A stretch of 23,824 bases of DNA from Promethearchaeota archaeon (GTDB lineage: Archaea > Asgardarchaeota > Lokiarchaeia > Sigyniarchaeales > SOKP01): contig JBHLPW010000012.1 in the NCBI GenBank assembly GCA_048939015.1, forward strand, positions 1 to 23,824, read 5' to 3'. Positions 2,104-19,880 of the stretch are shown one piece after another. A model generated the notes under the pieces. The model ran no database searches and was not told the DNA's origin. It worked only from the letters and a program-made list of their open reading frames with translations. A program made the translations under genes and the position numbers. How positions within the stretch are numbered: the first letter of the stretch is position 1; each line of letters opens with the position of its first letter.

Positions 2104-3219
2104 TTAAACTTTAGATTTTGCTTCAGCCTTAGTTGCGGCTTTAATACTAGTATAGGAATTTTCTAAAACAGTCAGATATTCCATCAGTACTTGGCTTGCT
2201 TTTGATTTTTGATCATATACTTTTTTTATGACATTTAATAGGTATTTGGGAAAAATTAGATCCAAATAGAAATCTGAAAGTAAAGCATAATATTCATTAT
2301 TTCTCTCATCTTGGAATACTTGGATCATTTGAGTATCCCATAACATCTTTAAAACGTCATCAAGATCATCAACACCTTTCTTTCTTAGTTTTTCAAGGTC
2401 ATTCCTAGTTACAATAGCATTTCTTAGCAATCTAAGTGTTTCATAAACTTGGGGATTAATAAGAATATCTATGATTCTAAGATTATCTCCTTCTGCTGGA
2501 CGATAATTTTGAAAAAATTTCTTAACTTCCGTCCTGTAATCCCCTACAAGTTGAGCAGGTAAACCACGGCTAGCTGGATCATCCAGCATTTTTACTGGAG
2601 GTATTCGTAATGTTACAACGTCTTGTATTAAAAATATAAGCTCTGACGGCATACCTTTCACTGATGTTTCTTTGACAATTTCTCGTTTTATCAGTTCTAT
2701 TAATACTCCTTCTAAATCAACGAAACCTTGTTTATATTGGTCTTTAAGCCATACCATTAATTCTGATTTGGAAACCACACCTTCATCTCTTAAACGGTTG
2801 ATTATTAACCTTTTAATTTCATCCTGATACGTGATAGCAAGTTGTTGTTCATTATTGAGTGTAGGATATACAGATAATCTTCTAAAAAGATTAGGGATCA
2901 TTTCTATATATGCATCATCTCTCATATTTTGTAAGATTATTCGAGAAATGTCGATTAATCCACCCTCGTAGCTATCTGGGTCATCATCTAAACTTAAAAG
3001 TAGAAGAATGTAAAATCCTTTATCAGGTCCAGTATAATAAGAGGCAATATTCAATGATCCAATCATTAAACTGATCATACCTGATTCACCACTATACTCA
3101 TGGGTACTGTAAACTTGCATAAGAGTCTTGTCTGTTATATTTATTTCTTCTGGATACTTAGCTAAAATTTCAGTTCCTATTCTTTCATCCCATCTCATAA
3201 CTACTAAACCGACTGGAAT
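2104..3219 (-). CDS. Longin/uDENN-like + tandem winged-helix protein, paralog A (NPRL2/NPRL3-like architecture); probable ATT start, 371 aa
   Basis: N-terminal GLVVMRWDERIGTEILAKYP resembles the uDENN/longin start pattern (hydrophobic strand-F/W-D-xxxG-xxhhxx-YP). Two WH-like segments follow (IINRLRDEGVVSKSEL...LIELIKREIV; VYETLRLLRNAIVTRNDL...LKMLWDTQMIQV). Colinear with 10508..11620. The in-frame extension ATT-CCA-GTC-GGT-TTA-GTA-GTT-ATG matches paralog MPIGLVIM. Confidence 0.7.
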   Translation of the reverse strand: MPVGLVVMRWDERIGTEILAKYPEEINITDKTLMQVYSTHEYSGESGMISLMIGSLNIASYYTGPDKGFYILLLLSLDDDPDSYEGGLIDISRIILQNMRDDAYIEMIPNLFRRLSVYPTLNNEQQLAITYQDEIKRLIINRLRDEGVVSKSELMVWLKDQYKQGFVDLEGVLIELIKREIVKETSVKGMPSELIFLIQDVVTLRIPPVKMLDDPASRGLPAQLVGDYRTEVKKFFQNYRPAEGDNLRIIDILINPQVYETLRLLRNAIVTRNDLEKLRKKGVDDLDDVLKMLWDTQMIQVFQDERNNEYYALLSDFYLDLIFPKYLLNVIKKVYDQKSKASQVLMEYLTVLENSYTSIKAATKAEAKSKV

Positions 3220-6200
3220 TATGGTTCACCTCCATATGATTCATTAATATCTTCATCTTCTGGAAAATCATCTTCCTTCTCAGGTTCAGGTTCTGGTTCC
3301 GGTTTTGATTCTGGTTCTGGTTCCAGTTTTGGTTCTGGTGGTTTTTCTTCTTCTATTTTAGGTAACTTTTTAGGTTTTTCTTCTTTTATAGAAGGCAATT
3401 TCTTTTTCTTAGCCGGGATCCCCATTACATCTAGTAACGATAAACCAATTGTATCCCATTTATCTCCAAGTTTCTTTACAATATATTCGTCTTTTGTAGG
3501 GTATAAAAGTGATTCTGAAATAGATTTACTTCCTTTAATGTCTTTTTTCATACTTCTCGCCTTTTTAACAAAAGTAGGAATTCTTCGTTGTTGAATTAAT
3601 CTATATGACACAAGACTACCACCGACAGCCGCAATTGCTCCTACTATTAATATAAAGTAAAAGGTGGGCATTCCAGGAAAAATTTCTTCTATTTGGACAA
3701 CAACTGTAAAATCTTTGGTTTCAGATGTAAAATTAGCTTTTTCAATTGAAAGCGTTGCTAAAAAGGTTTCAGGCATTAAAAATGGTTGAGCTATAGGAAA
3801 TGTATTTACTGTGTATGTACCATCACCATTATCAATTATATAATTATTACTAGTACTATAAATGTGGCCTCTAATTGCAAAGGTTAAATCCGCTCCCACA
3901 ATTGGGACGGAACTGTTATTAGGATCAGTAAGCGTTATTTGAAATTGTATAGTTGCGCCAGAAACTAAATTTATTAGAGCACCTATAGAATATTGTACAG
4001 AAAACTCTCTTTTATTAATAGTAAGAGAGATTATCGCAACTCTGAAATCATAATTATCCTTATTTAAAGTAACTACGATAGAATACTCTCCTACTTGAAG
4101 ATTTTTAGTGTTTAAATCCAAAATATATTGATGATCGGTAGTTTCTCTTAATATTCCTGTTAAAGTACTTTCGTTGATTGGTACTCCATTTTCATCGAGT
4201 TTTACAAGAATAAAACTTTTTTCATCAGCGTCCTTGATAATCTTCATAGTTAAACTATCAATAAACTCAAAAGTGAAGTTATATGAATCACGTGCATACA
4301 ATTTTTGACTTAAGTATAGAACATTATCATTTGAATTCAATAAGGTTGGTCTATTTATTATATTAATAACAAGATTAGGACTTGGAACGCCGTTAGTGAA
4401 ATTTTGCTTTACTGCCAATATATTGATGGTATAAGCACCGACTTCAGTTACATTACCTGTATCAAAGAAAAATGAATAATATCCTACACCTTTTGAGACA
4501 TCTGGATTAATAATACCCGATCCAAAAGCCCAATTATACGTTACTAGAGCATTTGAAATGGGGCTATTAGAGATAGCTTCACTAAAATAGAAAGTTATCC
4601 CTAGAGTTCGATTCCAATATTCTGTAAGCGTGTAAGATGGAAATTCAGCACCTGTAGTATAATTATGAATGGTTAAATCTGTTAATATAGACTGCACCTT
4701 AAAGAAAATTAACAGTGGTGTGGGTGGAGTATGGGGTGGAGTTGTTAAGCTTCCGTAAATACTAATATAATATGATTCACCGCCTATGAATGAAAATTCT
4801 GAACTATTGAAAGTATAACTGTATTCTCCAACACTCGAAATATTGTATAGCAGCATATTAATAGGATTCCCTATTCCATTTAATGATTCATCGCGAAATT
4901 GGAGAAATAACGTAGTGGGTTGTGCTAATTCTTTGGGATTGGATTGATATTGTTTTGTAAAATTAAAACTAATTGTAACATTATCTCTCCAATAGATACC
5001 TGTTGTAAAGTTTGTAGGATTTTTGGATATTAATGTTAAATATGTATGATAATCTGAGAGAGCATAGTTGATAATAAGAGTAACTACTACAACTTGAGAA
5101 GTATAGTTCTCTTTATCAAATGTTATAGTAATTGTATAAGTTGCATTTAATTTACTTGCTGTATCAAAGCCTAAGAGATAATATATTTGTTTTCCAGAAT
5201 CATATCCAAGCGAACCTCCTCCACTTGGATCAGTTATTTCTGTACTATTATATATATATGATTGAGTATCCAAATTAGTTATTGATGTACTCGAAATATC
5301 ATCTATATAGGAATAAGTTAAATTTAATGAGTCTCCCATATTAATGACAAAAGTACCAGTCGAACCATTAACGGATGTCGGACGATCTTCAATTGTTAAA
5401 GATAATACAGCGCTTCTTAATTCATAATTTAATTTATCAAGTGTTATAAATACAAAATAATCTCCAAGTTCCATTTTCTCTGTATCAAGATCTAAAATAT
5501 AACTATGATCACCAGTTTCAATTAAATTGCCAATTTTATTTTCCCCAGGGATTGGAACTCCGTATTCGTCAAGTTTCTGCCAATTATAACTCATTTCATC
5601 TGGATTGGAAATCTTTCCTCCAGTTAAAACGTCCGTATAATTGAATTCGAATAATTCTGTTTCTAGGGCATAAACATTTTCACTTAGAAATATCACATTA
5701 TTAGTACCATTTATTTCTGTAGGTCTTAAAAGGATATTAAGAGTAACTTCAAAATCATCGATTTTTGTATGATTTTCAAGTGTCGCGGTTATATCAATTT
5801 TATATATTCCTACAATTGGAGCGAGTGCTGTATTAAGTTCAAATGTATAATATCCAGGATTCATTGGATCAGGATTTATTGATCCAGAACCATAGTCCCA
5901 ATTATAAGTTACTGATTCTGCTGTTAAAGAACTACTAGTACTAGTATCATAATATCTAATAGTCATATTGATAAGTTCATTATAATATTGTGAAAGTGTA
6001 TTCGATGGAATCTCATCTGGCATTGAACTATAATTATATAGACTCATACTTGTTGGGAGCGAATTTATGAAAATTGAAAAGGTTACATCTGGTGGCTCGT
6101 AATAGTACAATTTCTTTCCTGAAATAGTTATGAAATATGATTTACCATAATCTCCTGCTGAAAATTCACTTGAATTTAATGTTATTGAAAAAGTCCCTGA

Positions 6201-8948
6201 ACCTTCAAACTGCATTGAATCTTCAAAAACTGTGGGGTTACCAATAGCTGTACTTTTAATATTCAATGTTATTGTAGTACCACCATTATCATCAGGATTC
6301 CAGAGACCACCTGCGTTATCGGAATATTCAAAATTAATAGCAAAGGTCATGTTTTCACCCCATGCTACTTCTGTATCAGCTACTAGGCTTCCGTTTTGAA
6401 ATCTAGTTATATAATCTTTGAAATTTAAATTCAATTCAAAAACAAGTAAAGATTCTCCATATAACGTATAATTATAGTAATTATACAACGGAATCTCATT
6501 GAACCATTGATCTGAATAATTTATTTTGAAATTAAATCTTTGTGTTATAATCCATAAGGAAAAATTATACGTAGTTTCTCTCTTATACCAAAAATTTAGG
6601 TTATCATTAATTATTCCATATGCATAGCCTTGATCATCTGTTTTTAAATCTACTACATGTTCACCTGTTCCATTTATTTCAGCTCTGACTGTTACGCCTT
6701 CAACAGGTACAGTTGCAGTATTATCAATAACTTGTATACTTAATTTAGACATATTTGTTCTGATATACTCAGAATAAGCAAAACTTAGAGATACTTCGAT
6801 AATACCGTTACATTTAGTTTTGTTCGCCCCTTCAATTTCTAATCTTAGTCCAAAAACATCATAATCTTCTTCTTCGTCTGGATGATACACAAAAGTATCA
6901 TTGGATGCTTGACCTGTATAATCCTTTAGTTCTTTAAATTGGTGGCCTGAGTCATCTAGATACCAAATTCTTACTTGAGTTAAATTATCCATTTTATCCA
7001 ATTCAACCATGGCATCTATTGCAGTAATATTACCAGGGTTTCCATAACTTGAACCTTCTAGATACGTGTCTACATTAACAGAATATGTTGGTGTTCCTGG
7101 AGTATCAACATTAGTATTATTTACGAAATAAGTGGTTTTAATACTTTCACGGGTTATTATACTCGAGTTTAAAGCAGTAGGATTTGCAAGAACATAATCA
7201 ATGTTATCATAATATACTGTATAGTTGTAACTTGAGCGATTCAACCATCTAAATGTTGCTTTTCCTGTCGAATCTAAAGTGAGACTCTCTAGAACCTCAC
7301 TTGTTCCAGCGCTAACATTTATATATCCATAATTTAATGGATTTCCATCCCAATCATCTACTTCAAAATCTATTGTCCAAAGATCAGTATATAAGATTGT
7401 AGTATACATCAATCCCTTAAACTCTACTTCTCCATCCGGTTCGGTTCTACTATCATATACTATAGCCTCACCTGAACTTATAGTATAATTCACAGTAATG
7501 TTATAAAATCCAAATGGAACTTTTGTAAAGGAAACGGTCCCATCAGATAAAGTAAAGTCTGTATAAGTAGTACCATCTACCTCTAGAATATCTGTTGCGT
7601 TTTTCCATAAGGAAACTTCTGCACCTGGAACTCTTCTCCCATCAACGTCTTTAATAATTATAGTAACTGCTGCAGCACGTTCGGTAACAGGCAATAAGTC
7701 TGTTTCAATAGCATAATAATGAGCCAACCATTCAATTTCGTCAGGAGCGACAGCATAGTCAAAATATCTGACTTCATCAAGATATCCCTCATAATATCTA
7801 CTATTTCTACCTCCATTTTCACTTGTAGCTTCGGAACCATCTCCAAAAAAGCCCCATCTATCCGTACCAGTCCCAATACCTCTACCTCCATGAGGATTTG
7901 CCCATATATCAGCAGCATAATCATCAACATATATATATTTGTCAGAACCATCATATACAACACATGCAAAATGCCATTCATCATTATTTAGACCGGTAAC
8001 ACTTCCATAGAAATCATTAATGCTACTTCCTGAAGCAGAACTAGAGAATCCGATTCTACCTTCTGTGGTACCTCCATTTGCATCAGAATCACAATCTATG
8101 TAAAAATTAAAGAACTCAGACCGATCAAAATCAAAAAATGCCCAATTATAAGTATAATCCTGAGTTGATGAAAAATCTGTTTTGAACCAGCAACTAACGG
8201 TTACTGATGTTATTTCATTAGGCTCTGTAAAATGTAAGTCATCATTTATGTAAGCCCATTCATTAGTGCCATCAAAATAAAGAGAATAATCGCCAATAGC
8301 ACTATCGGAATCATAAGTAGGATATTCGGTACCAGAAGTCCCATAGAGAGTAGCATTACAATTATTTAAACTATCAATAGTTTCTGAATTATAGCCTCCA
8401 GAACCTTCCTCAAAACTCCACCAACTTGATCCAGATGGATCATAATTAATATATGTGCCTCCGCGATAATTAATTGATGCGTTACCCCAGTACATATATG
8501 TGTCATATTCAGATTCTCCTGCAGAAGAATTAGTTTCAAACCAGATTGTAGCAATATCATTAGTAGGAAAATCTTTTTTCACATAATAGTTTCTTACTTC
8601 ACCGTTTTCGACAATTCTAACGTCATACAAATCAGCGTCCATGTTATAATTATCTCTTAAGGTACCATAATCGAATTCAATACTAACAAAGTTGTCAATA
8701 AGGTTATAACTTCCTGGATTAGTGATATTTATACATTGTCTCCACTGATAAGATGCATTCCACCATGGATCTTCGCCTATTTGTGCCATATTAAGTTTTT
8801 GTGGACCTTCATATTCAGCAGTACCTTCATTTGCGTATACAATATTACTTGTATCATTTAAACAACTTACAATCAATGGAAAAATTATAAGAATAGTTAA
8901 AAGAAATGATAAGCTCTTAATTTTTTTTGTTTTATTATGTAATATCAT
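3219..8948 (-). CDS. Giant single-pass cell-surface glycoprotein, paralog A (DUF2341-like, LamG/ConA-like, Ig-like repeats, TM, cytoplasmic tail)
   Basis: N-terminal basic+hydrophobic signal. WWNASYQWRQCINITN...DVRIV...YMYWGN is DUF2341-like. WWSFEEG...TVSCWFK...WHFACVVYDG...IYVD...YEGYLDEVRYF is LamG-like. T/Y/N-rich beta repeats carry many N-x-S/T sequons. TM is FYFILIVGAIAAVGGSLVSY, followed by a ~125-aa charged tail. Confidence 0.85.
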   Translation of the reverse strand: MILHNKTKKIKSLSFLLTILIIFPLIVSCLNDTSNIVYANEGTAEYEGPQKLNMAQIGEDPWWNASYQWRQCINITNPGSYNLIDNFVSIEFDYGTLRDNYNMDADLYDVRIVENGEVRNYYVKKDFPTNDIATIWFETNSSAGESEYDTYMYWGNASINYRGGTYINYDPSGSSWWSFEEGSGGYNSETIDSLNNCNATLYGTSGTEYPTYDSDSAIGDYSLYFDGTNEWAYINDDLHFTEPNEITSVTVSCWFKTDFSSTQDYTYNWAFFDFDRSEFFNFYIDCDSDANGGTTEGRIGFSSSASGSSINDFYGSVTGLNNDEWHFACVVYDGSDKYIYVDDYAADIWANPHGGRGIGTGTDRWGFFGDGSEATSENGGRNSRYYEGYLDEVRYFDYAVAPDEIEWLAHYYAIETDLLPVTERAAAVTIIIKDVDGRRVPGAEVSLWKNATDILEVDGTTYTDFTLSDGTVSFTKVPFGFYNITVNYTISSGEAIVYDSRTEPDGEVEFKGLMYTTILYTDLWTIDFEVDDWDGNPLNYGYINVSAGTSEVLESLTLDSTGKATFRWLNRSSYNYTVYYDNIDYVLANPTALNSSIITRESIKTTYFVNNTNVDTPGTPTYSVNVDTYLEGSSYGNPGNITAIDAMVELDKMDNLTQVRIWYLDDSGHQFKELKDYTGQASNDTFVYHPDEEEDYDVFGLRLEIEGANKTKCNGIIEVSLSFAYSEYIRTNMSKLSIQVIDNTATVPVEGVTVRAEINGTGEHVVDLKTDDQGYAYGIINDNLNFWYKRETTYNFSLWIITQRFNFKINYSDQWFNEIPLYNYYNYTLYGESLLVFELNLNFKDYITRFQNGSLVADTEVAWGENMTFAINFEYSDNAGGLWNPDDNGGTTITLNIKSTAIGNPTVFEDSMQFEGSGTFSITLNSSEFSAGDYGKSYFITISGKKLYYYEPPDVTFSIFINSLPTSMSLYNYSSMPDEIPSNTLSQYYNELINMTIRYYDTSTSSSLTAESVTYNWDYGSGSINPDPMNPGYYTFELNTALAPIVGIYKIDITATLENHTKIDDFEVTLNILLRPTEINGTNNVIFLSENVYALETELFEFNYTDVLTGGKISNPDEMSYNWQKLDEYGVPIPGENKIGNLIETGDHSYILDLDTEKMELGDYFVFITLDKLNYELRSAVLSLTIEDRPTSVNGSTGTFVINMGDSLNLTYSYIDDISSTSITNLDTQSYIYNSTEITDPSGGGSLGYDSGKQIYYLLGFDTASKLNATYTITITFDKENYTSQVVVVTLIINYALSDYHTYLTLISKNPTNFTTGIYWRDNVTISFNFTKQYQSNPKELAQPTTLFLQFRDESLNGIGNPINMLLYNISSVGEYSYTFNSSEFSFIGGESYYISIYGSLTTPPHTPPTPLLIFFKVQSILTDLTIHNYTTGAEFPSYTLTEYWNRTLGITFYFSEAISNSPISNALVTYNWAFGSGIINPDVSKGVGYYSFFFDTGNVTEVGAYTINILAVKQNFTNGVPSPNLVINIINRPTLLNSNDNVLYLSQKLYARDSYNFTFEFIDSLTMKIIKDADEKSFILVKLDENGVPINESTLTGILRETTDHQYILDLNTKNLQVGEYSIVVTLNKDNYDFRVAIISLTINKREFSVQYSIGALINLVSGATIQFQITLTDPNNSSVPIVGADLTFAIRGHIYSTSNNYIIDNGDGTYTVNTFPIAQPFLMPETFLATLSIEKANFTSETKDFTVVVQIEEIFPGMPTFYFILIVGAIAAVGGSLVSYRLIQQRRIPTFVKKARSMKKDIKGSKSISESLLYPTKDEYIVKKLGDKWDTIGLSLLDVMGIPAKKKKLPSIKEEKPKKLPKIEEEKPPEPKLEPEPESKPEPEPEPEKEDDFPEDEDINESYGGEP
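3226..3233 (-). promoter_or_regulatory. SD motif GGAGGTGA inside the last codons of surface protein A
   Basis: - strand reads GGAGGTGA-ACCATA-ATT; the same motif precedes the paralog ATG at 11620. Confidence 0.75.
3279..3385 (-). repeat. Low-complexity coding repeat (PE/PK-rich) in cytoplasmic tail
   Basis: Imperfect GAACCA-type hexamers on the - strand encoding EEKPKKLPKIEEEKPPEPKLEPEPESKPEPEPEPEK. Confidence 0.8.
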
Positions 8949-9337
8949 AGTTTATTTCATTTTTTGTGTAATAAAAAATTTTAAAATGTGTTTCAAAAGA
9001 AACATATTTTTAACAATAAATATGTAAATTTTATTATTTAACTTTTTATAATCAAATAATATAGTGAAAAATCTTAGAGTTTATTATAACAGAAAACTGT
9101 CTAAAATGATCTTATGTAATATTTGTGATCAATTTTGTGTGTCCATTTCAAATTTCTTTTGTTAGAGAAATTTCTACTCAATTTGGATAGAAAAATAAAT
9201 TGAATTCTAGCGCTATAAACGCTGTATGAATAATTGAGAGTATACAAATTGGTTGAAAAATTATTTTTTTGTATGATTTAATGGATATAATCATGCAAAA
9301 TAATTCATCCTTTTATTTCTTAAATTTATCAATTTCT

Positions 9338-9350
9338 AAAAATTTAAATA
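9338..9350 (+). promoter_or_regulatory. Possible BRE/TATA box for the GTPase gene
   Basis: AAAAA-TTTAAATA about 60 nt upstream of ATG 9408. The region is very AT-rich, so specificity is low. Confidence 0.3.
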
Positions 9351-9407
9351 GTTAAATTTAGATTGAAGAATCAAAGAATAATACCCATATGTTTTATATC
9401 AGAGAAG

Positions 9408-10430
9408 ATGTTAAGACAAGTATACATTTTAAAAGATGAGAGGATCCTCTATAATAAAAATTTCGGCAAAGCATTGGCTATGGAAGATTTCAATAAGATT
9501 TATGCAGAAATTACTAGTGGAATTGGAATTGAACTAGATAGTTATGATTTTATTAAATATAGAATTCTTTTCACAATTGATGATAAAACTGGTTTAACTT
9601 CCATCTTCGTTATTGATATTAATGATGATCTTTCGCAAGCTAAAACACAATTAAAAACATTACAAAAAGAATTCATTGAAACATTTGGTGACAGTATCAA
9701 CGATATAGACCCTTCCTTGATGGAATTAATTGACCCTATATTGGATTCCATCCATAGGAATCTTAAAACAAAGATCTCTCTAGTAGGATTTTCAGGAGTA
9801 GGAAAAACTACAACTACTAAATTAATATGTGCGACTGAGATTCCATCAGTTCACATTCCTACAATAACAGGTAAAATTTCTACAGTTAAAATAGGAAAAT
9901 TATATTTTCACTTATGGGATTTTGCAGGACAGGAACAATTTAGTTACCTCTGGAACGACTTTATACTTGGGAGTGATGCAGTTCTTATCATTACAGACTC
10001 TACTTTAGAAAACGTGGAAAAGAGTAAGTTTTTTATAGAAATAATCAAAGAACACGCCCCTTATGCTCATACTGCTGTGATAGGTAACAAACAAGATTTA
10101 CCAAATGCTTTAGATATCGCAAAAATAGAAGAGATTATTGGCCTTAAAACATATTCAATGGTCGCAATTGATCCTGATAATCGAGACAAAATGATACAAA
10201 TTATAGCTGATATCCTAGGAGTTAGTACAGATGCATCTCCTTTATTAAAACCCTTATTTGAAAGAGATCAACTAATCCAACAAGCAAAGAGTTGCTTAGA
10301 AAATGGAGAAATTGCCCAAACGGCTCAGCTTTTTGAAAAAATATCTGAATTATGCCTTGAATTAGGAGATGATACACTTTATAAGGAATTTTATGAAAAA
10401 GCAAAGAAGTTGAAGAGTTATTTTAACTAA
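9408..10430 (+). CDS. Small GTPase (Arf/Rab-related) with N-terminal longin-like domain and C-terminal helical extension
   Basis: G1 GFSGVGKT, G2 PTI, G3 WDFAGQ, G4 NKQD. The first ~105 aa (MLRQVYILKDERILYNKNF...LTSIFVIDINDD...LKTLQKEFIETF) fit the AP-sigma/SRX-type longin pattern. The C-terminal QQAKSCLENGEIAQTAQLFEKISELCLELGD is TPR/MIT-like. ATG 9408 is preferred over TTG 9363. Confidence 0.88.
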   Translation: MLRQVYILKDERILYNKNFGKALAMEDFNKIYAEITSGIGIELDSYDFIKYRILFTIDDKTGLTSIFVIDINDDLSQAKTQLKTLQKEFIETFGDSINDIDPSLMELIDPILDSIHRNLKTKISLVGFSGVGKTTTTKLICATEIPSVHIPTITGKISTVKIGKLYFHLWDFAGQEQFSYLWNDFILGSDAVLIITDSTLENVEKSKFFIEIIKEHAPYAHTAVIGNKQDLPNALDIAKIEEIIGLKTYSMVAIDPDNRDKMIQIIADILGVSTDASPLLKPLFERDQLIQQAKSCLENGEIAQTAQLFEKISELCLELGDDTLYKEFYEKAKKLKSYFN

Positions 10431-11620: not shown

Positions 11621-14600
11621 TAGTTTTCCTCACCTCCTTCTTTTGATAATTCTTTATCTGAATCCTTTTCTTCTACTACGGTTTCTTCTGATACTTTTTC
11701 TACAAGTTCTTTTTCTTCTGGTGGTTTCTCAATCTTTGTTTCTTCTTTCTTCAGTTTTTTCTTAAATTCTTTCTCTTTCTTTACTTTATCTTTTATTATT
11801 TTATCAATAGATATTTCATCTTTTGATACTTTATCTTTAGTTTGAAGCTTTTTAGGTTTTACGTCTTTTACGCCTATGACATCACCGAGTGAAAGTCCAA
11901 TTTCTTTCCATTCTTTTCCAAATATTTTAACTGTCATTTGTTCTTTTGTCGGAATGACTATCATTTCCTCTATTTTTTTCTCAGCTTTTATTAATTTTTT
12001 AACTTTTCTTATTTTTTTAACGTGTTTTGGTATTCTAGCTTGTTGGACAACTCTATATCCTACTACACTTCCTAAAATTCCAATTATTGACCCAGTTATC
12101 AAAATAAAGTAGAATGTTGGCATACCAGGAAATATTTCTTCCATAGAAACTACAACTGTGAATTCATGAGTTTCAGAAGTAAAATTCGCTTTTTGAATGG
12201 TGAGTGTGGCTATAAAAGTTTCAGACATAATAAATGGTTGAGCTACAGGCCATGTATTAATTGTGTAAGTACCATCGCCATTATCAATAATGCCTCCAGT
12301 AATAGTATCGTAATTGATACCTCTTAAGATTAAAGATAATGTAGCTCCAACTATTGGAGCGGATTCATTATTAGGATCAATGAGTGTAATAACAAATTGT
12401 ACATTTCCTCCAGAAACTAAATAGATTAAGTTATCAATAGAAAAATTAGGAGAGAAAACTCTTTCATCAATAGTTAGAGACATTATTGCAACTCGTATTT
12501 CATGATTTTCCTTTCTTAACGTAACAACAATAGAATACTCGCCTACTCGAAGTTCTTCTGTGTTAACATCCAATATATATTGATGCCCAGTTGTTTCAAT
12601 CAATGATCCAATAATGGTACTACCAAGGATTGGATTTCCATTCTCATCACGTTTGTGTAGAATAAAACTCTTTTCATCAGTATTTTTTATAGTCTTCGAT
12701 GTTAAAACATCAATAAACTCAAATGTATAGTTAATTGGATCTAATACATGAAATCTATCACGTATATATAAAACATCATCATTTAAATTCAGTATTGTAG
12801 GTCTGTTAATCACATTAATTAGCAGATTAGGATTTGGTACTCCATTACTGAAATTTTGTTTTGTTGCTAAAATACTGATTATATATGTACCTGTTTCAGT
12901 CACATCACCAGTATCAAAGAAAAATGAATAGTATCCCGGACCTTTTGCTAGATCTGGATCTATTGTACCCGTTCCAAAAACCCATGAATACATGACGAAT
13001 GCATTAGATATCGGAGCATTAGAAATTAACTCTTCAAAATAAATTGTTATTCCAAAAGTTCGATTCCAATATTCTGTAAGTGTGTACGATGAAAATTCTA
13101 TACCTGTTGTGTAATTATGAATAGTCAAGGTAGTTTCTACGGACTGAACTTTAAAGAAAATTAGAAGTGGGTTTGGAGGAGTATAACCAGTTTTACTAGC
13201 TTGAATCCTCATATAATATGATTCACCACCTATGAATAAAAATCGAGATGTGTTGAACGTAAAGCTATAGGTTCCTTTAGTTGTATTATAGTCAATCAGA
13301 TTAATCGAAGATCCTAATGCATCTAAAGATTCATCAAGAAACTGGAGAGTTAACGTAGTAGGATGTGCTAATTCCACTGGTTCGCTTGGATCTTTTGATG
13401 TAAAAGTAAAGTTAATTGACACCTCATCTCTCCAAAAGATTTCTGTTGTAAAGTTTGCGGGATTTTTAGAAACTAGCGTTAGATTAGTACGATAATTCGT
13501 AATAAGATAACTAACAACAAGAATACTTACAACAACTTGAGAAGTATAGTTCTCCTTATCAAAGGAAGCTGTGATTGTATAGTTTCCCTCAAGTAGACTT
13601 GCAGTATCGAAGCTAATAAGATAATATACTTTCTTGGTGGAATCGTATCCAAGAGCACCATTAGTGTTAATTGTGCCATTAATAGTATAAGTTTTTGTAT
13701 CTAAATCAGTAATAGATGCTCCAGTCAAATCATCATTATAAGAATATGTGAAATTCAGTGAGTCTCCCATATTGATGGAAAAAGCACCAATAGATCCATT
13801 CACAGATGTTGGACGATCCAAAATTGATAAAGAAATTACGGCAGTTCTTAACTCATAATTTATTTTATTTAAAGTTATAAATACAAAATAATCTCCAAGT
13901 TTCATTAACTCTGTATCAAGGTCTAAAATGTATCTATGGTCAGCTGTTTCAATCAACGAGCCAATTTTATTTTCCCCAGGTATTGGATCTCCAAACTCAT
14001 CAAGTTTCTGCCAATTATAACTAGCTTCATCTATATCCGAAATTTTCGTTAAGCTTAAAACATCTGTGTAATTGAATTCAATGAATTCTGATTCAAGGGC
14101 ATATACATTTTTAGTTAGAAAAAATACATTATTGGTACCATTAATAAGAGTCGGCCTTTCTGTAATTCTGATAGATGTTAAAAGAATCTGTGTAGTATAA
14201 TTTTCTAAAGATGCCCTAATTAAAATTGTCCTCGTCCCCCATACTTCTGCTAAAGATGTATCTATAGTGGCAGTATAATAACCTATATTAATTGGATCTT
14301 CATAGAATTGAATAGGGGAGAGGCTAAGCCATTCATATGTAAGTGTTGCTCCTTTTAAAGGAGAATTGCTATTATTATAATATTTTACTGTAAGATTAAC
14401 AAGTTCACCATAGTGTTGTGAAAGTTCAGTAATGGGATTTAAACTATCGTAATAATCATGTAATGATAGAACTGTCCCTTTTCCCTCCACAAAAAGTGTT
14501 GTAACAAGCTCACTTTGAAGGATATAAGGAGTTTTAGCACCTATAATTATAAGTCTATAAAAAATACCAGCTATTCCAGCAGATAGTATGGAAGAATTAA

Positions 14601-17484
14601 ATACTTTTCCATAATATCCTGGAGAGCCTGCATTATCCATATCAAAAGTAAATAGTACATTGGTACCCTGTTTAATTATTAGTTGTATCGAATCCGGAGT
14701 CTCTACCGGACTATAGTCTACCCAATCATTTTCAGTTTTATTGAAGTAAATTTGAACCGAAACATTATTTCCCCATACTACACTCTCTGGAGATGTTAGT
14801 TCATCAAATTTTAGTTTGTAGTCACTTTGATTTACCGTCCCCATATCGATATCAAATTCAAGTGAAAAATCATACTTCAATAAAGAATAATTATACCATG
14901 AAACCCAAGTTTTTGGTGCCCATTGATCTGGATCGGGTCCAGAAACATTAAAAGTATCTCGAATAGTAGCACCTTCCCATCTAACAGTAAAATTATATAA
15001 ATAACCTTTCAAGAACATAAATGGTAAATCATTATCAGTGAAAGCATAACTGTCTCTATTTTTATCAGATATTAACGTAGTTGTAACAATACTACCAAAT
15101 ATAGGTAAAACAGATTTTATAGTAACTATCGCATCTGAGATGGTAGCTCCATCACCAAGAACTCTTATATTTAGTTTTGATATTCCTGTTTTATTAAATA
15201 GATGCCATGATTCAGTCATGTTTATTTCTATTTCTCCAGTACACTTAGATGAATTTACGCCCCATACATCGATGAGCAAACCATATGCCATGCGATTTTC
15301 ACTACTCAACTTAGAATTTACAACAGTCATAAGATCAATCTTAATATTATCATCTGTCTCTGCAACATAGCTATCATCAAAGAAAATACGATGACTTATT
15401 GTATCTGTGTTATCAGAAGAATCTATGTAATAAATTGAAACATTATTGAGAAATCCATTATTTTGTATTGATATAGATACATTTAATAATCTTGTATCTG
15501 ATATCTGTGTGGTCGAACCATTTGTATAAATTCGCTCTTTAACGTTAAATTGACCGGAACCTATTGGTTGTTTATTATTTTGATTAATATCAAGAGTATT
15601 AAATTGATGTTTATTACCATCAGGGTATTTTTCATATTCGTCTCTCCATATGTAGCCAGCATTTAACGGGGTTGAATTTGGAGAATAATCCGTATTATTG
15701 TAATAGACTTGGTAATAATAATATGAACGATTTAACCACCGAAATGTTGCTTTTCCATCAGTATTAAGTGCTAGAATATCTAATGCTGGATCTCCTTGAC
15801 TATAACTAACATTGATAAATCCATAAGTTAAAGGATAGCCTCCATCATCAACAAATTCAAAATCAATGGTGGATATGTTTAAAGTCAACTCATACACCTT
15901 GCCTGATCCATCAATCAGAAATTCTGTCGAAATAATTCTACTATCATATACAACTTCCTCTAATCCAGAATATGCTATTGTATAATTTACTGTCACATTA
16001 TAGTTTCCATAAGCCACATTGGAAAACCTAACAGAACCATCTTCTTCAGAAGTCTCATATGGACCTATTGTTGTCGGAGTTCCATACTCCTCCATTATCG
16101 TTACTTCTGCGTTCGGTACAATTCTTCCATCAACATCTTTTGTTATAAATGTAGCTTCCCCAGCAACCTCTTGTACATCATCATTCAAGGCAGTATTTAT
16201 TTCATAATTAAATTTAACATCATCTACTTGCGTAAATGCGGCATGCTTCTCACTTTCTTTACCATAAGTTCCAATTACTAGAAATAATAGTTTTCCCATA
16301 TCACCTGCATCTAAATCAATTGATATTTTACCAGTTATTTCTCCATCATTTTCAAAAGGTTCACTTGCATCATTTCTTGTATCATACAAATTTGATCCTA
16401 AAATTTCATCAATAACATAAGTTTCAGCAGGAGTTTTAACACTTCGATAATTTTCTTCTAAAATATACTCACTATGGTAATTTACATTTGAAGTGTAATT
16501 TTCGCATAACCTCATGTAATATCCCAATAGATGAGCATCATTTATAGTATAACATCTAAAGTTTCGATACACTTCTAATTCAAGATCAACTCCAATTCCC
16601 TCAACTGTTGGAACTATAAAAGGATATGTATAAAGTGTTCCTTCAAAATCGTTACCATCTTCTGGATCATTCTCGGTTCTTAAAAATTGCCCCGTATCTC
16701 CCCATTTAAAGGACCAATTACCAAAAACTCTCTCTTGGTAATCATTCGAATCAGTAAGTTTATGTACATAATTCGCACTATTTTCAAGCTCTCCACTCCC
16801 ATCATCTAATGAGGTGGGTGCTGCATTAGTATAATTCCATCCATATACATTCCAAATTTTATCCCCTGATACATAATCAAGTTCAAAATCCCCATTTCTA
16901 ACCCAACCCATTGCATCTTTTTTATTATTTGATGCAATATCCATATAATAGTCAGGATCAACGGATTCATGACCACTTCCATTAAAATACAAAAAGACAT
17001 TATCTGTGTCAATGTTATTTGGTGATTTACCAATATCTACGTCGAACCAAACAGTTACAAGATCGATATTTGGATAATCTTTTTTATAATAATATTTTCT
17101 AAGGACGCCATCTTGAACAATTCTAATATCTGATAAGTCCCCATTCATTTTATAGGGTGCTCCGCCCACTGTATGTACAGTATAATTGAATACTACTGAG
17201 GTTGTATAATTTGTAAAATCAAAATTAACATTTGGATTAGTAATATTTATTAGTCTTCTATATCTCCAAGATCCATCCCACCAAGGAGCACTACTTATTT
17301 TGCTGATGTGAAGGCTTTTAAAATTATCAATTTCCTCACTATTCTCGTTGAAATTTAGCTTTAAATTATTAGTATTCATTGGAAAAATAATGAATATACT
17401 TGGAAGCATAATTATCAAAATGAAAATTAAGGTTTTCGTTAATGTTTTTATTCTTCGATCTCCTGTCATTTTTTCGAACCTCAT
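11620..17484 (-). CDS. Giant single-pass cell-surface glycoprotein, paralog B (DUF2341-like, NGDFE jelly-roll/CBM-like, Ig-like repeats, TM, cytoplasmic tail)
   Basis: Signal/anchor LIFILIIMLPSIFIIF; PWWDGSWRYRRLINITN...LSDIRIV; WVRNGDFE...QVDDVKF domain; stalk repeats homologous to paralog A; EEIFPGMPTFYFILI + TM; K/E-rich tail. Confidence 0.85.
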   Translation of the reverse strand: MRFEKMTGDRRIKTLTKTLIFILIIMLPSIFIIFPMNTNNLKLNFNENSEEIDNFKSLHISKISSAPWWDGSWRYRRLINITNPNVNFDFTNYTTSVVFNYTVHTVGGAPYKMNGDLSDIRIVQDGVLRKYYYKKDYPNIDLVTVWFDVDIGKSPNNIDTDNVFLYFNGSGHESVDPDYYMDIASNNKKDAMGWVRNGDFELDYVSGDKIWNVYGWNYTNAAPTSLDDGSGELENSANYVHKLTDSNDYQERVFGNWSFKWGDTGQFLRTENDPEDGNDFEGTLYTYPFIVPTVEGIGVDLELEVYRNFRCYTINDAHLLGYYMRLCENYTSNVNYHSEYILEENYRSVKTPAETYVIDEILGSNLYDTRNDASEPFENDGEITGKISIDLDAGDMGKLLFLVIGTYGKESEKHAAFTQVDDVKFNYEINTALNDDVQEVAGEATFITKDVDGRIVPNAEVTIMEEYGTPTTIGPYETSEEDGSVRFSNVAYGNYNVTVNYTIAYSGLEEVVYDSRIISTEFLIDGSGKVYELTLNISTIDFEFVDDGGYPLTYGFINVSYSQGDPALDILALNTDGKATFRWLNRSYYYYQVYYNNTDYSPNSTPLNAGYIWRDEYEKYPDGNKHQFNTLDINQNNKQPIGSGQFNVKERIYTNGSTTQISDTRLLNVSISIQNNGFLNNVSIYYIDSSDNTDTISHRIFFDDSYVAETDDNIKIDLMTVVNSKLSSENRMAYGLLIDVWGVNSSKCTGEIEINMTESWHLFNKTGISKLNIRVLGDGATISDAIVTIKSVLPIFGSIVTTTLISDKNRDSYAFTDNDLPFMFLKGYLYNFTVRWEGATIRDTFNVSGPDPDQWAPKTWVSWYNYSLLKYDFSLEFDIDMGTVNQSDYKLKFDELTSPESVVWGNNVSVQIYFNKTENDWVDYSPVETPDSIQLIIKQGTNVLFTFDMDNAGSPGYYGKVFNSSILSAGIAGIFYRLIIIGAKTPYILQSELVTTLFVEGKGTVLSLHDYYDSLNPITELSQHYGELVNLTVKYYNNSNSPLKGATLTYEWLSLSPIQFYEDPINIGYYTATIDTSLAEVWGTRTILIRASLENYTTQILLTSIRITERPTLINGTNNVFFLTKNVYALESEFIEFNYTDVLSLTKISDIDEASYNWQKLDEFGDPIPGENKIGSLIETADHRYILDLDTELMKLGDYFVFITLNKINYELRTAVISLSILDRPTSVNGSIGAFSINMGDSLNFTYSYNDDLTGASITDLDTKTYTINGTINTNGALGYDSTKKVYYLISFDTASLLEGNYTITASFDKENYTSQVVVSILVVSYLITNYRTNLTLVSKNPANFTTEIFWRDEVSINFTFTSKDPSEPVELAHPTTLTLQFLDESLDALGSSINLIDYNTTKGTYSFTFNTSRFLFIGGESYYMRIQASKTGYTPPNPLLIFFKVQSVETTLTIHNYTTGIEFSSYTLTEYWNRTFGITIYFEELISNAPISNAFVMYSWVFGTGTIDPDLAKGPGYYSFFFDTGDVTETGTYIISILATKQNFSNGVPNPNLLINVINRPTILNLNDDVLYIRDRFHVLDPINYTFEFIDVLTSKTIKNTDEKSFILHKRDENGNPILGSTIIGSLIETTGHQYILDVNTEELRVGEYSIVVTLRKENHEIRVAIMSLTIDERVFSPNFSIDNLIYLVSGGNVQFVITLIDPNNESAPIVGATLSLILRGINYDTITGGIIDNGDGTYTINTWPVAQPFIMSETFIATLTIQKANFTSETHEFTVVVSMEEIFPGMPTFYFILITGSIIGILGSVVGYRVVQQARIPKHVKKIRKVKKLIKAEKKIEEMIVIPTKEQMTVKIFGKEWKEIGLSLGDVIGVKDVKPKKLQTKDKVSKDEISIDKIIKDKVKKEKEFKKKLKKEETKIEKPPEEKELVEKVSEETVVEEKDSDKELSKEGGEEN
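11629..11637 (-). promoter_or_regulatory. SD motif GGAGGTGAG in the last codons of surface protein B
   Basis: - strand GGAGGTGAGGAAAACTAATG: SD followed by an overlapping TAATG stop/start. Confidence 0.8.
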
Positions 17485-17634
17485 TTTAGAAATATATCAA
17501 TTTTTTACTTTTTATTCTAAAAATATATTTAAAACAATTATATGAGAAAATTAATTTAATATTATGCTTATCAATAAATCTTAAAAAGAAAGTTAAGTAA
17601 GGATCATTCCAATTCAAATAATTTATCTTTCGAA

Positions 17635-18270
17635 TTATAACTCTTTATTTAAAATAAGATATATTTTTCGCTTTCTTTGGCTATTTGGGTTGTCTATAAT
17701 AAAATGACCATAAAATGCTGTGCTTTTTTTGATAACTTTACCGATATTTTCTAAAATTTTCTCGTTTTTAGGATAAAATTGAATTACTACTCTAGAATTA
17801 GGTTTTAGTATATTAAAAAAAGACTTAGACATATTTTTTAACATTAAATACATTTCTTTATTATAAATGTCTCTATATATCCACTGTAAAGCTGAAATTG
17901 AAAGGATTGCATCAAATGTGTTTGCTTTAAAAGGAGGAAAACACATATCCGCCGTAATTGGGTTTAAATCCTTTATATCATAAAAATTTAAGAATTCTGT
18001 TATAATATCGAGTGCTATAGTCCTATATCCCATCTCCTTTAAAACCATTGCGGCAAATCCTGGACCACTTCCAGCATCTAATATCAAAGCATCTTTTCTT
18101 TGAAGATCTAATAGTTCTAAAGCTCTAATAGTTATCTTTTCTTGAATTTTCATCATATTCTTAGAGTTTGCATATTGAACTAAAACATCGTCTCTAAAAT
18201 AATTTGAAACATCATTATATGTTTCTTCGGGTCTCTTCCTTTTAACTTTGAAATAATACTTGTCGTTCAA
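17635..18270 (-). CDS. Class I SAM methyltransferase, BUD23/WBSCR22-like (SSU rRNA m7G methyltransferase family)
   Basis: SAM motif ILDAGSGPG plus Bud23-family signatures RPEE, IQEKITIRALELLDL, PFKANTFDAILSISALQW, QFYPKN and IIDNPNSQRKRKIYLIL, as recalled from yeast Bud23 (RPEE, RALELLNL, FDAAISISAIQW, QFYPKN, KKYYLVL). TTG start. Confidence 0.85.
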   Translation of the reverse strand: MNDKYYFKVKRKRPEETYNDVSNYFRDDVLVQYANSKNMMKIQEKITIRALELLDLQRKDALILDAGSGPGFAAMVLKEMGYRTIALDIITEFLNFYDIKDLNPITADMCFPPFKANTFDAILSISALQWIYRDIYNKEMYLMLKNMSKSFFNILKPNSRVVIQFYPKNEKILENIGKVIKKSTAFYGHFIIDNPNSQRKRKIYLILNKEL

Positions 18271-18425
18271 ATCCCATTAAACTTAAATGTGTTAATCAGA
18301 TAATCGATATTGAAAAAATAAATCAAATTTTCGATAATAAAACAAAAATTTTATTAAATTTTAAATATTTATAAATTCAAATAGATAATATTTTCTATAT
18401 TCCTATAAGTGTCTTGTGATTTACA

Positions 18426-18722
18426 GTGTCGGAAAAAGAAGAAAAACAAATAATAAGAAAAGCTACATTAAATCTTAGAAGAAAATACGGAAGAACCAAA
18501 CAAATAAACATTGTTGAGAGAGATGCTTTTATTCCAAAAAGTCTAGAGAACGAAATAAAAGATTCAATTCTAAAAAGAAAAACAATTTTAGCTACTGATA
18601 TCGCATTAAAATATGATATTAGAGTATCAACGATTAAGTTATTGTTAAAACAATATGAAGAAGAAGGTTTAATAAAATTATTAGACCCCTCATTAAAATT
18701 AAAAATTTATGTTCCTTCTTAG
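18426..18722 (+). CDS. rps25e: 30S ribosomal protein eS25 (S25e)
   Basis: 98-aa basic protein with eS25-type winged helix (TILATDIALKYDIRVSTIKLLLKQYEEEGLIKLL...KIYVP). GTG start lies 6 nt after GTGA. Confidence 0.8.
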   Translation: MSEKEEKQIIRKATLNLRRKYGRTKQINIVERDAFIPKSLENEIKDSILKRKTILATDIALKYDIRVSTIKLLLKQYEEEGLIKLLDPSLKLKIYVPS

Positions 18723-18824
18723 AATTAAGTTTCCCTAATTTTAAATGAGAAATAATTTTATATATTAAAGCTTTTAAATGTATAAATACAAATTTACTCA
18801 TTACCATTTAATATAATACATAAA

Positions 18825-18929
18825 GCAGCTGTAGCCTAGATGGTAAGACGCCGGCCTCGAGTGTATTAATTACTAATCAAGAAAGCCGGTGCGCGAAAGC
18901 GCTCGGGGGTTCGAATCCCTCCAGCTGCG
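18825..18929 (+). tRNA. tRNA-Ser(CGA) with 22-nt intron at canonical position 37/38 (intron 18862..18883)
   Basis: Acceptor GCAGCTG/CAGCTGC, discriminator G, anticodon stem CCGGC/GCCGG, CT-CGA-G|intron|A, long variable arm GCGC-GAAA-GCGC, T arm GGGGG-TTCGAAT-CCCTC. CCA is not encoded (CTA follows). Confidence 0.93.
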
Positions 18930-18944
18930 CTAGTTATAAATGTT

Positions 18945-19880
18945 CTATTGAATAATTTGTAAAATTAAATTTTCCATTTGAGGTTTTGCTGCTTCAATTC
19001 GATCTAATAATGTTATAGTTTTTTCTAAATTAGATGCATCTTCTTCAACAATAAATAGGAGATAAAAATCTAGATTACCAAAATTTAAAACCTCAATTAT
19101 ACCAGAAAATCTTTCTCCACTTTCAAATTTATCTGAAAACTCAAGAAGTGTCCTTTCCTCGTCAACTACTCGTTTTTGTAAATCAATATATATTTCATAT
19201 ATTTTTAATTTCTCTTTTAATTGGAGATGTGGTCTATAATATTCACCAAGAGTGATTCCCTTAGCATCGAACAGTGCTATTAAAATTGAATTGTAATTTT
19301 TACTTAATTCAGAAAATAATTGAGTAACCATTTCAATTTTTTCAAAAAGCATGGATAAACCACTAGAAAAAGCATCCATGATTGATTTAATATCATATAT
19401 TGTCGTTTCAAAGAAAAATATATCAAATGCATTAGAGTAGCGTGTTAAAGCTTGCTTGAGAGTAAGAATTCTTTTATTTATATCTTTATCATTAATAAGT
19501 TGAGGATCGAATTTATGAAACAGAATGCAAATTGGTACATATTCTTGTTCTTCCTTGAAAAAAAGTAAAATTTCTTCCAAATAGTCTATTGACTCAATAT
19601 ACCGATTAAAATCTTGAGCATCTATCACATAGAATAAGAGATCTGTTCCCATAAGATATTTCTCTGGATGTTTCAAATATTCTTCCCTATATTGTTTCTG
19701 TCCTCCGAAATCCATTCTTGTAAACTCAATACCAAGAAATCGAAATGAGTCTCGGGCAATTCTTCTTGTTGGTGTTAATCTAGCTATTTCCTCTTCAAAC
19801 CCGAAGCGTTTCGTGATCGCTGTTATGATACTAGTCTTACCTGCATTATCCAAGCCCATGACTCCAATTTTCTTTGAAAT
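18945..19880 (-). CDS. Rag/Gtr-like small GTPase with C-terminal roadblock-like domain; probable ATT start, 311 aa
   Basis: G1 GLDNAGKTS, G2 PT, G3 DFGGQ, G4 HKFD (His as in Rags), G5 FFETTIYD..SIMDAFS (like Gtr2/RagC TSIYD.SIFEAFS). C-terminal helix + IALFDAKGITLGE fits a roadblock pattern. The beta-1 strand KKIGVM lies upstream of the listed ATG at 19859. Confidence 0.82.
   Translation of the reverse strand: MSKKIGVMGLDNAGKTSIITAITKRFGFEEEIARLTPTRRIARDSFRFLGIEFTRMDFGGQKQYREEYLKHPEKYLMGTDLLFYVIDAQDFNRYIESIDYLEEILLFFKEEQEYVPICILFHKFDPQLINDKDINKRILTLKQALTRYSNAFDIFFFETTIYDIKSIMDAFSSGLSMLFEKIEMVTQLFSELSKNYNSILIALFDAKGITLGEYYRPHLQLKEKLKIYEIYIDLQKRVVDEERTLLEFSDKFESGERFSGIIEVLNFGNLDFYLLFIVEEDASNLEKTITLLDRIEAAKPQMENLILQIIQ

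Follow-up and report, generated by a model that had tools for sequence, protein, structure and literature searches.

Gene organisation of the locus

The 23,824-nucleotide stretch analysed here, referred to as the window, is the start of an 85-kb contig (JBHLPW010000012.1, assembly GCA_048939015.1) from a 4.86-Mb metagenome-assembled genome of a Promethearchaeota (Lokiarchaeia-type) archaeon, and its G+C content is low (26–36%). The subject of this work is a locus in which two cassettes, each consisting of a giant surface protein gene followed by a gene for a cytosolic protein of ~370 amino acids (aa), lie on either side of a small-GTPase gene. The ~370-aa protein, henceforth referred to as X370, is predicted to contain a longin domain and two winged helices, and the GTPase, henceforth referred to as ArfL, a longin-type domain and an Arf-family G domain. 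The gene set was taken from an open reading frame (ORF) map with translations, and families were assigned by Pfam. Cassette A comprises giant A (1909 aa; 3219–8948, minus strand) and X370-A (2104–3198, minus strand; 364 aa from the ATG at 3198, or 371 aa, reaching to 3219, if the ATT at 3219–3217 is the start). Cassette B comprises giant B (1954 aa; 11620–17484, minus strand) and X370-B (370 aa; 10508–11620, minus strand). ArfL is encoded between them on the plus strand (9408–10430) in an ORF that is open from a TTG at 9363; its orthologs begin at an ATG equivalent to 9408. Giant A and ArfL are transcribed divergently from an AT-rich intergenic region (8949–9407, G+C fraction 0.26) presumed to hold the promoters. 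This arrangement of two cassettes around a longin-GTPase gene had been described in a first-pass annotation of the sequence, and the ORF map and translations placed every one of its genes where that annotation had them. The organisation of the locus is real and far above chance.

Giants A and B share 50% identity over their C-terminal ~1490 aa and are colinear there, while their N-terminal regions differ. Giant A contains a DUF2341 and LamG-like lectin region (Laminin_G_3, E 1.3e-8) and Ig-like repeats. Each giant has an N-terminal hydrophobic segment (signal/anchor) and one C-terminal hydrophobic run, giving a transmembrane helix at aa 1762–1782 in giant A and 1790–1810 in giant B. NxS/T sequons, about twice as numerous as expected from composition, lie almost exclusively N-terminal of this helix (51 of 52 in giant A, 48 of 49 in giant B). 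Given the sequon placement and the single transmembrane helix, the giants are type-I surface proteins that are probably heavily N-glycosylated. The cytoplasmic tails measure 127 aa in giant A and 144 aa in giant B, where the tail is Lys/Glu-rich, and their first ~65 residues are basic (isoelectric point, pI, ~10) and conserved between the two. No NCBIfam match was obtained for the tails or for the ectodomain N-termini. PGF-CTERM/archaeosortase sorting was considered and rejected, as no NCBIfam sorting-signal model matched the C-terminal 210–225 residues, which include the 127- and 144-aa tails.

The giant B stop and the X370-B start overlap in TAATG, preceded by GGAGGTGA, and the ATG of this overlap is present in copy B and in most X370 orthologs. 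The homologous start position in copy A is an ATT (3219–3217) that overlaps the giant A stop TAA, and the frame from this ATT to the first ATG of X370-A encodes IPVGLVV, which corresponds to the first β-strand of copy B. Judged by this alignment, either the ATT serves as a start codon or X370-A would be missing half of β-1. The stop/start overlap indicates that the X370 and giant genes are translationally coupled.

Related cassettes were also found elsewhere. A third one in the same genome (contig C91, 4848–11027) encodes a 1683-aa single-pass protein and a 375-aa X370 paralog (29% identity), and is followed by a gene for a 636-aa TrmB-type helix-turn-helix protein (C91, 2918–4828); X370 is likewise followed by a TrmB-domain protein in a related representative (P0241, locus L090). 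A metagenomic relative (L093, 1335–9438, and L094) encodes a 1554-aa Ig-like surface protein, then X370 after a one-base gap, with a 397-aa protein and an actin-family gene (PF00022) downstream of X370 on the same strand.

Conservation of the gene linkage and fused forms

Close relatives were surveyed with a single X370 protein, which reached relatives at 60–92% identity only. All 47 species-level relatives keep the giant-to-X370 order. They have in common a block of metallophosphoesterase, Urm1, Rag-like GTPase, eS25, methyltransferase, giant, X370, ArfL (on the opposite strand), giant, X370, RuBisCO-like and leucine-rich repeat (LRR) genes, and some of them contain a third cassette. This shared block mostly reflects common descent.

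The wider distribution was established with an X370 profile, for which 349 of the 400 Asgard species genomes gave a match. X370 was matched in every genome of the window's class, and matches in many other families were strong (E 1e-30 to 1e-130); families f12–f18, f28 and f29 gave a marginal match or none in most genomes. Linkage at a distance was then assessed in 29 stretches containing 30 full-length X370 genes, taken from 15 genomes of other families. At 10 of these 30 loci, X370 has an ArfL ortholog, one that shares the longin N-terminus, no more than two ORFs away. The arrangements vary, with X370 followed by ArfL on one strand, ArfL followed by X370, divergent pairs and convergent pairs, and an Atabeyarchaeia genome has giant, X370 and ArfL genes in this order on one strand. 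Large single-pass surface proteins are the commonest X370 neighbours: one of 600–3,200 aa adjoins about half of the 30 distant genes, and a big-protein neighbour was present for three of six randomly chosen distant X370 representatives. In two closed genomes of family f3, one of which has the size of the Ca. Lokiarchaeum ossiferum genome, X370 always follows a surface protein of 2,000–3,200 aa, with three tandem cassettes in one of the genomes; the nearest ArfL-type gene there is two genes from a stand-alone X370-type longin.

A non-circular test of the ArfL linkage was made by using the window's ArfL alone as a single-sequence query against five genomes of five other GTDB families. In all five (G115, G117, G319, G100 and G002, of which G117 is a closed Freyarchaeia and G002 a closed Atabeyarchaeia-2 genome), the genome-wide best ArfL match adjoins an X370 homolog (E 8e-59 to 4e-36). 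A quick maximum-likelihood tree of 49 X370 sequences placed ArfL-adjacent genes in at least four deep branches, which indicates that the X370–ArfL association is old or recurrent and not a single-lineage accident. The same sequences indicate that the A/B tandem duplication is recent and occurred within the window's own Lokiarchaeia family. A survey of synteny across Asgard genomes had been proposed as a check in the first-pass annotation; the linkage of X370 with ArfL and with surface proteins held in divergent lineages, and that of the Rag-like gene was confined to close relatives.

The linkage extends to gene fusion. An exhaustive HMMER search turned up longer proteins that end in X370; they represent nine clusters at 50% identity, and five of the nine measure 1,330–2,550 aa. 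Two of these fusions were examined, and both are single ORFs on their contigs. Each consists of an ectodomain, a transmembrane helix, the same juxtamembrane motif as in the giants, a linker of ~25 aa and X370, with Arg replacing the X370 start Met. The fusions appear to be secondary, because they nest inside the split A-type clade of a quick tree. Fusions are classic evidence of contact and suggest that the surface-protein and X370 products work together physically; the frequent linkage and the single-ORF fusions fit a tail-tethered adaptor. No X370–GTPase fusion was found among ten long X370 forms scanned, of which two contain SIR2_2 and tetratricopeptide (TPR) repeats and one TPR repeats.

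Small-GTPase genes with N-terminal extensions stand alongside the fused gene on both fusion contigs, and one of them encodes a 651-aa Arf-type protein. Three small-GTPase genes (651, 307 and 327 aa) surround the fused gene at L086, 5733–17565. The 306/307-aa type of this contig has an N-terminal extension of ~135 aa, and its G domain is only ~25% identical to that of ArfL. Two X370 homologs, P0176 and P0178, carry a SIR2-like domain together with TPR repeats, which brings them to ~1,020–1,046 aa; the joining of a longin–winged-helix adaptor to a domain resembling an NAD-dependent enzyme was unexpected.

These data bear directly on the possibility that there is no functional module at all, and that the locus reflects inherited gene order together with an abundance of GTPase and longin genes, X370 being a chaperone or assembly factor for the tails or unrelated to the giants. 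GTPase genes are common neighbours in any case, as 69 ORFs of the genome match ArfL at E<1e-3; the syntenic block of the 47 close relatives includes housekeeping genes, and ArfL adjacency is missing in many X370 paralogs. Common descent does not readily account for the variation of gene order and strand between lineages, nor does gene abundance explain why the best ArfL match specifically, and not any GTPase, abuts X370 in each of the five distant genomes. Surface protein–X370 fusions are hard to explain without a physical relationship, and the stop/start overlap is conserved. We therefore regard the absence of a module as distinctly improbable.

Domain architecture of X370 and ArfL and the proposed module

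X370-A and X370-B are 64% identical. Neither matched a Pfam family at E≤0.1 or any NCBIfam model, and their database relatives are all annotated as hypothetical. An AlphaFold2 model of X370-B, computed from a 59-member alignment, had a predicted local distance difference test score (pLDDT) of 95 and a predicted template modelling score of 0.88. Residues 1–121 of this model have the longin topology β-β-α-β-β-β-α-α, with DSSP strands at 4–11, 15–22, 47–53, 56–62 and 69–75 and helices at 30–43, 81–97 and 104–120, all at pLDDT >90. Residues 121–204 (WH1) and ~243–323 (WH2) are modelled as winged helices. The first-pass annotation had proposed a longin plus winged-helix composition, and the model and its structural matches agree with it, placing two winged helices after the longin.

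The X370 model was compared exhaustively with 48,161 PDB representatives. The top match of the longin was NPRL2 (Z 12.4, or 11.9 in another comparison; root-mean-square deviation 2.6 over 119 aa), followed by Npr2/3 of the yeast SEA complex (Z 11.3), VAMP7 (11.0), Lst4 (10.8), a Lokiarchaeota roadblock-longin (10.6), and FLCN and FNIP2 (10.3). Overall, residues 1–121 superimpose on longins, including Ykt6 and Sec22b, at Z 10–12.4 over 104–124 residues; the σ, μ and ζ subunits match at Z 9–10 and SRX structures at Z 8.8–9.0. The safe statement is that the model places the X370 N-terminus among longin domains, nearest to the NPRL2/Npr2 type, with near-tied scores. Whole-chain Foldseek matches were led by NPRL3 and NPRL2 (E 6e-4 to 1e-3, probability 0.98, 314–330 aligned columns) at a template modelling (TM) score of ~0.2, VIA-align superimposed residues 1–121 only, and NPRL2 clusters in the ESM Atlas reached TM scores of 0.32–0.38. 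A likeness of the whole X370 architecture to NPRL2 is thus suggestive at the level of predicted models. The 59-member profile retrieved no NPRL, FLCN or C9orf72 chain from the PDB at E≤10. Membership of X370 in the NPR2 (PF06218) or NPR3 (PF03666) families was rejected for want of any Pfam or PDB profile match.

NPRL2 and NPRL3 (Npr2 and Npr3), the longin subunits of GATOR1/SEACIT, which is a GTPase-activating protein (GAP) for RagA, resemble X370 in the longin match, in a size of ~370–400 aa and in the whole-chain Foldseek hits, and two adjacent X370 paralogs recall the NPRL2–NPRL3 pair. They differ in that X370 superimposes through its longin only, has two ArsR/MarR-like winged helices as its C-terminal half, lacks a conserved arginine finger and has an Arf-like rather than a Rag-like conserved GTPase neighbour, and in that the X370 A/B duplication is recent, not ancient. 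No DEPDC5-like partner, as found in GATOR1, turned up here, although no search was aimed at one.

A conserved motif of the X370 longin resembles one in another eukaryotic longin system. The N-terminal consensus of the 59 members reads M-P-x-G-(hydrophobic x4)-[RK]-W-D-[ED]-[RK]-x-G ... K-Y-P; W10 is shared by 54 of them, D11 by 48, G15 by 52 and P23 by 58. In the model, W10-D11 close β-1 and G15 opens β-2. C9orf72 has an essential W33-D34 and a 'GP' motif, G38-P39, and GP-motif longins were reported in Asgards in a 2025 survey that analysed 14 Asgard longins (PMC12290439). The WDxxxG spacing and position in X370 are those of W33-D34/G38-P39 in C9orf72 (PMC12290439), at the β1/β2 junction. Pro follows the Gly, at position 16, in only 7 of the 59 X370 members, and copy B has Ser at 15. 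X370 also resembles the C9orf72–SMCR8 (CSW) and FLCN–FNIP systems in its setting, as CSW acts on Arf GTPases and the conserved neighbour of X370 has an Arf-family G domain. It differs from both in lacking a conserved Arg finger and in having winged helices where the DENN module stands.

Stand-alone proteins of ~130 aa with an X370-type longin were also observed, in the window's own genome (C6, 541–936; C108, 54559–54936) and in others (L084, 10336–10749; L071, 7230–7619). One of the stand-alone longins reads WDNEIGP, the full WD...GP motif. In two other genomes a stand-alone X370-type longin gene lies near an ArfL-type GTPase.

The winged helices raise the alternative that X370 is a transcription regulator, in which they would bind DNA while the longin and GTPase govern release from the giant's tail, in the manner of ToxR/CadC. 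Such a role would suit the resemblance of WH1 to RosR (Z 9.7), MepR and MecI (Z 9.1–9.7; 8.6–9.7 for the winged-helix fold overall), the profile match of WH2 to the archaeal ArsR-type protein PH1932 (E 1.2e-4) and the TrmB-type helix-turn-helix gene that follows one class of X370 paralogs (C91 and P0241). The proteins themselves are strongly acidic (pI 4.9; family median 5.2), each winged helix has a net charge of −3, and the copy B segment aligned to the ArsR recognition helix is the Asp-rich GVDDIDGG, not the kind of surface that contacts DNA. In the fused forms, moreover, a short linker would hold X370 at the membrane. X370 was accordingly rejected as a DNA binder of the ArsR/MarR type, lacking a basic recognition helix or wing; a DNA-binding role appears unlikely, and the transcription-regulator explanation as a whole is very improbable.

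ArfL is composed of a longin (aa 1–118), an Arf-family G domain (aa 120–273) and a C-terminal three-helix unit that is added in the lokiarchaeial copies. The G domain was assigned by PF00025 (E 9.5e-19, 68 bits against a cut-off of 22.3), and its PDB sequence matches were led by Arf1 (E 1.8e-14), followed by Arl8 and Arl10; its modelled structure matches Rab5, Rab6 and Arf6 at Z ~20. The GxxGVGKT motif, the switch-I Thr, WDxAGQ with the catalytic Gln, and NKQD are invariant in 24 ArfL orthologs. In the AlphaFold2 model (pLDDT 85.7) the N-terminus has the order β-β-α-β-β-β-α-α, and its profile matched AP-2 σ (E 4e-4), the VAMP7 longin (E 0.015–0.09), AP-3 and AP-4 σ and MglB. A fold search with the whole model gave G-domain matches only and none for the N-terminal domain, so the longin assignment rests on the topology and a marginal profile match. 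With that basis, the earlier description of the middle GTPase as bearing an N-terminal longin was supported. The N-terminal amphipathic (myristoylated) helix of the Arf family is not present in ArfL, which has the 118-residue longin-topology domain instead.

Two known systems offer partial parallels to a longin protein beside a small GTPase. MglA–MglB, a bacterial Ras-like GTPase with its roadblock GAP, is similar in that a small GTPase is encoded beside a roadblock/longin-superfamily regulator, but MglB consists of one roadblock domain, no longin is fused to MglA, and the system has neither a membrane partner nor winged helices. The signal recognition particle (SRP) receptor, in which SRX of SR-α meets the Arf-like SR-β, likewise combines a longin-fold domain with an Arf-like GTPase at a membrane. 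Here, by contrast, the anchor is a giant glycoprotein and not the GTPase, ArfL has no transmembrane helix, and there is no SRP link.

The σ-type matches bring in a further alternative, in which X370 acts inside-out as a cargo adaptor: ArfL-GTP would bring X370 to the membrane, and X370 would bind the giant tails, so that the surface proteins are clustered, sorted or placed, on protrusions for instance. The logic would be that of a proto-coat, comparable to Arf1 with the AP/COPI σ and ζ longins and cargo tails, with no ligand sensing. It draws on the same linkage evidence as the module reading given below. AP-2 σ is the best profile match of the ArfL longin, with AP-3 and AP-4 σ also matched, σ, μ and ζ subunits are among the structural matches of X370, and lokiarchaeal cells have numerous complex surface proteins and no S-layer (PMC9834061). 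X370 is nevertheless unaccompanied by the remaining parts of an adaptor complex, and its longin is closest to NPRL2/Npr2 rather than to σ-adaptins, near-ties notwithstanding. The fused forms imply a permanent attachment that a reversible coat does not need, and cultured Lokiarchaeia are not known to have compartments for internal trafficking (PMC10933270). The cargo-adaptor explanation is, on balance, unlikely.

A complex of X370-B with ArfL was predicted with GTP and Mg included, as the first-pass annotation had suggested for its longin–winged-helix proteins and GTPases. The score was 0.37 (runs of 0.42, 0.37 and 0.36), compared with 0.00 for the best control; the runs agreed in at least 90% of contacts, and partner pLDDT was at least 82. 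In calibration, 58 of the 80 solved complexes passed, as did 2 of the 110 mismatched pairs, and scores of 0.60 or below included 7 of the 80 solved complexes and both passing mismatches; these counts are approximate here, as the prediction used its own alignments and a ligand. With the gene-order prior, the predicted complex raises the odds of an interaction slightly and proves nothing, so that this check lends weak support to the pairing.

Taken together, the recurrent gene partnership probably represents a real membrane-linked GTPase module. The specific form that we favour, with a probability of roughly 0.55, is a three-component membrane-proximal small-GTPase module with X370 as its hub. 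The basic juxtamembrane tail of the giant (pI ~10) would hold the acidic X370 (pI 4.9) at the inner face of the membrane, where X370 would pair with ArfL through longin–longin or longin–G domain contacts, as in eukaryotic longin platforms. X370 might be a regulator of ArfL, either a GAP or a guanine nucleotide exchange factor (GEF), or an effector or platform, and through its action on ArfL the GTPase cycle would be linked with the surface protein. The flow could be outside-in, from a ligand or cell contact to the GTPase, or inside-out, from the GTPase to clustering, sorting and placement of the surface protein.

Several observations weigh against this module. The related genomes are not independent samples. 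In the two closed genomes of family f3, none of the six full-length X370 loci has ArfL next to it, and the same is true of the six random distant X370 paralogs. Within the genome that contains the window, X370 is missing beside further ArfL paralogs, and contig C106 holds two additional giant paralogs that lack X370. At the level of this complex score, most passes are false unless a high prior backs them. The sequence kinship of WH2 with archaeal ArsR-type regulators means that the C-terminal half of X370 may not be a homolog of the NPRL2 C-terminal domain. Finally, the sequence gives no catalytic mechanism for X370. The first-pass annotation had named R65 of copy B as a candidate arginine, which did not hold up: copy A has P65, and in the 59-member alignment position 65, in the β4–β5 loop, is mostly Pro (14 of 59), with no conserved Arg at 65–68. 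Among orthologs, position 65 is Arg in about three-quarters of the B type, with Gly, Lys or Ser in about one-quarter, and Pro in the A type. R65 was thus discarded as a family arginine finger, and since it is not conserved an arginine-finger GAP mechanism is not supported by the alignment.

It is a further and doubtful step to read X370 and ArfL as a surviving prokaryotic form of the eukaryotic longin GAP machinery (C9orf72–SMCR8, FLCN–FNIP and GATOR1), wired to giant surface glycoproteins. If this were true, a receptor- or cargo-coupled small-GTPase system at the plasma membrane would be older than eukaryotes, and it may control the 'complex surface proteins' and cell–cell contacts of Lokiarchaeia.

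Parts of this picture are already known. Longin–GTPase fusions have been published for Asgards as a class, and 'NPRL2-like longin domain' families are among the Asgard eukaryotic signature proteins (Liu et al., bioRxiv 10.1101/2020.10.19.343400; counted in PMC9834061). X370, with its NPRL2-like longin and its wide distribution, probably falls within one of these NPRL2-like longin asCOGs; Liu et al. (bioRxiv 10.1101/2020.10.19.343400) describe no coupling to giant surface proteins and no specific longin–Arf GTPase coupling. In the strain MK-D1, GTPase genes generally lie outside operons with longin or roadblock genes, and a structural survey of that strain found genome layout of little use for matching GTPases and regulators (PMC10933270). 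Our literature search, which was not exhaustive, returned no account of a longin protein coupled to giant surface proteins or paired with one GTPase. Within that incomplete search, NPRL2-like longins and longin–GTPase fusions are known in Asgards, and the three-gene linkage was not found described.

Small GTPases and longin or roadblock proteins number in the dozens in Asgard genomes, and to our knowledge nobody knows which regulator pairs with which GTPase. The locus offers a concrete conserved pair, one longin–winged-helix family and one longin–Arf GTPase orthogroup, together with a membrane anchor in the form of a giant glycosylated surface protein to which, in some organisms, the adaptor is fused. 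X370 family members occur in closed genomes, one of them matching the cultured Ca. Lokiarchaeum ossiferum in length, which makes tests of binding, GAP/GEF activity and localisation feasible. If the link holds, it would tie eukaryote-like GTPase regulation to the unusual cell surface found in the archaea most closely related to eukaryotes.

The Rag-like GTPase and the remaining genes of the window

A Gtr1/RagA-like GTPase gene (18945–19859, minus strand) lies 1461 bp from giant B, in agreement with the distance of about 1.5 kb given in the first-pass annotation, and is separated from the cassettes, as noted there, by housekeeping genes: a methyltransferase and eS25. It was assigned by PF04670 (E 1.5e-24, 87 bits against a cut-off of 22, model positions 5–206 of 232), and among solved structures the Lokiarchaeota RagA-like GTPase 8yl2 is the closest (E 2.4e-34). 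Its P-loop region already contains the first ATG (19859), which stands just ahead of the P-loop itself (MGLDNAGKT). The upstream frame reads ISKKIGVMGLDNAGKT, and ISKKIGV comes after an in-frame stop, without an ATG, GTG or TTG (19857–19889, minus strand). Orthologs from other genera begin MKKIAFLGLDNAGKT, and 11 close relatives have the same ATG-less arrangement. The start is therefore probably the upstream ATT at 19880, which would make this gene the second candidate for a non-canonical ATT start in the window, beside X370-A.

The first-pass annotation had tied this gene, tentatively, to the cassettes. Among close relatives it does travel with the locus, accompanying it only in a family-level block with eS25, the methyltransferase, Urm1 and the phosphoesterase, and other genes take its place in more distant genera (L045, L048 and L054). 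In the 29 distant stretches, none of the 30 X370 genes had a gene nearby with a Rag family as its best match. The Rag-like gene was accordingly rejected as a part of the module, the synteny being local only, and on this comparison the neighbouring Rag-like GTPase is probably not one of its components. The label 'GATOR1-Rag-like', also from the first-pass annotation, does not stand either: X370 has no NPR2/NPR3 match, superimposes through its longin only and has no conserved arginine finger, and its partner is Arf-like, not Rag-like. The analogy would hold only in the sense of a longin domain beside a small GTPase. At the third cassette (contig C91) a Rag-like gene is found ~2.3 kb away, which may be chance, given 19 Rag-like ORFs in the genome.

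The S-adenosylmethionine (SAM) methyltransferase (17635–18270, minus strand) and eS25 (18426–18722, plus strand) are arranged head-to-head, and the pair (17635–18722) is kept between the Rag-like gene and giant B in relatives. On the far side of the Rag-like gene, Pfam identified a Urm1/ThiS-like gene (20031–20312), a metallophosphoesterase (20461–22056) and two hexapeptide transferases (22059–22799 and 22803–23669), all on the minus strand. At the opposite end of the window are an LRR protein fragment (3–659, plus strand) and a RuBisCO large-chain-like gene (672–2000, minus strand; Pfam E 7.5e-48), both of which stay beside cassette A in most related genomes.

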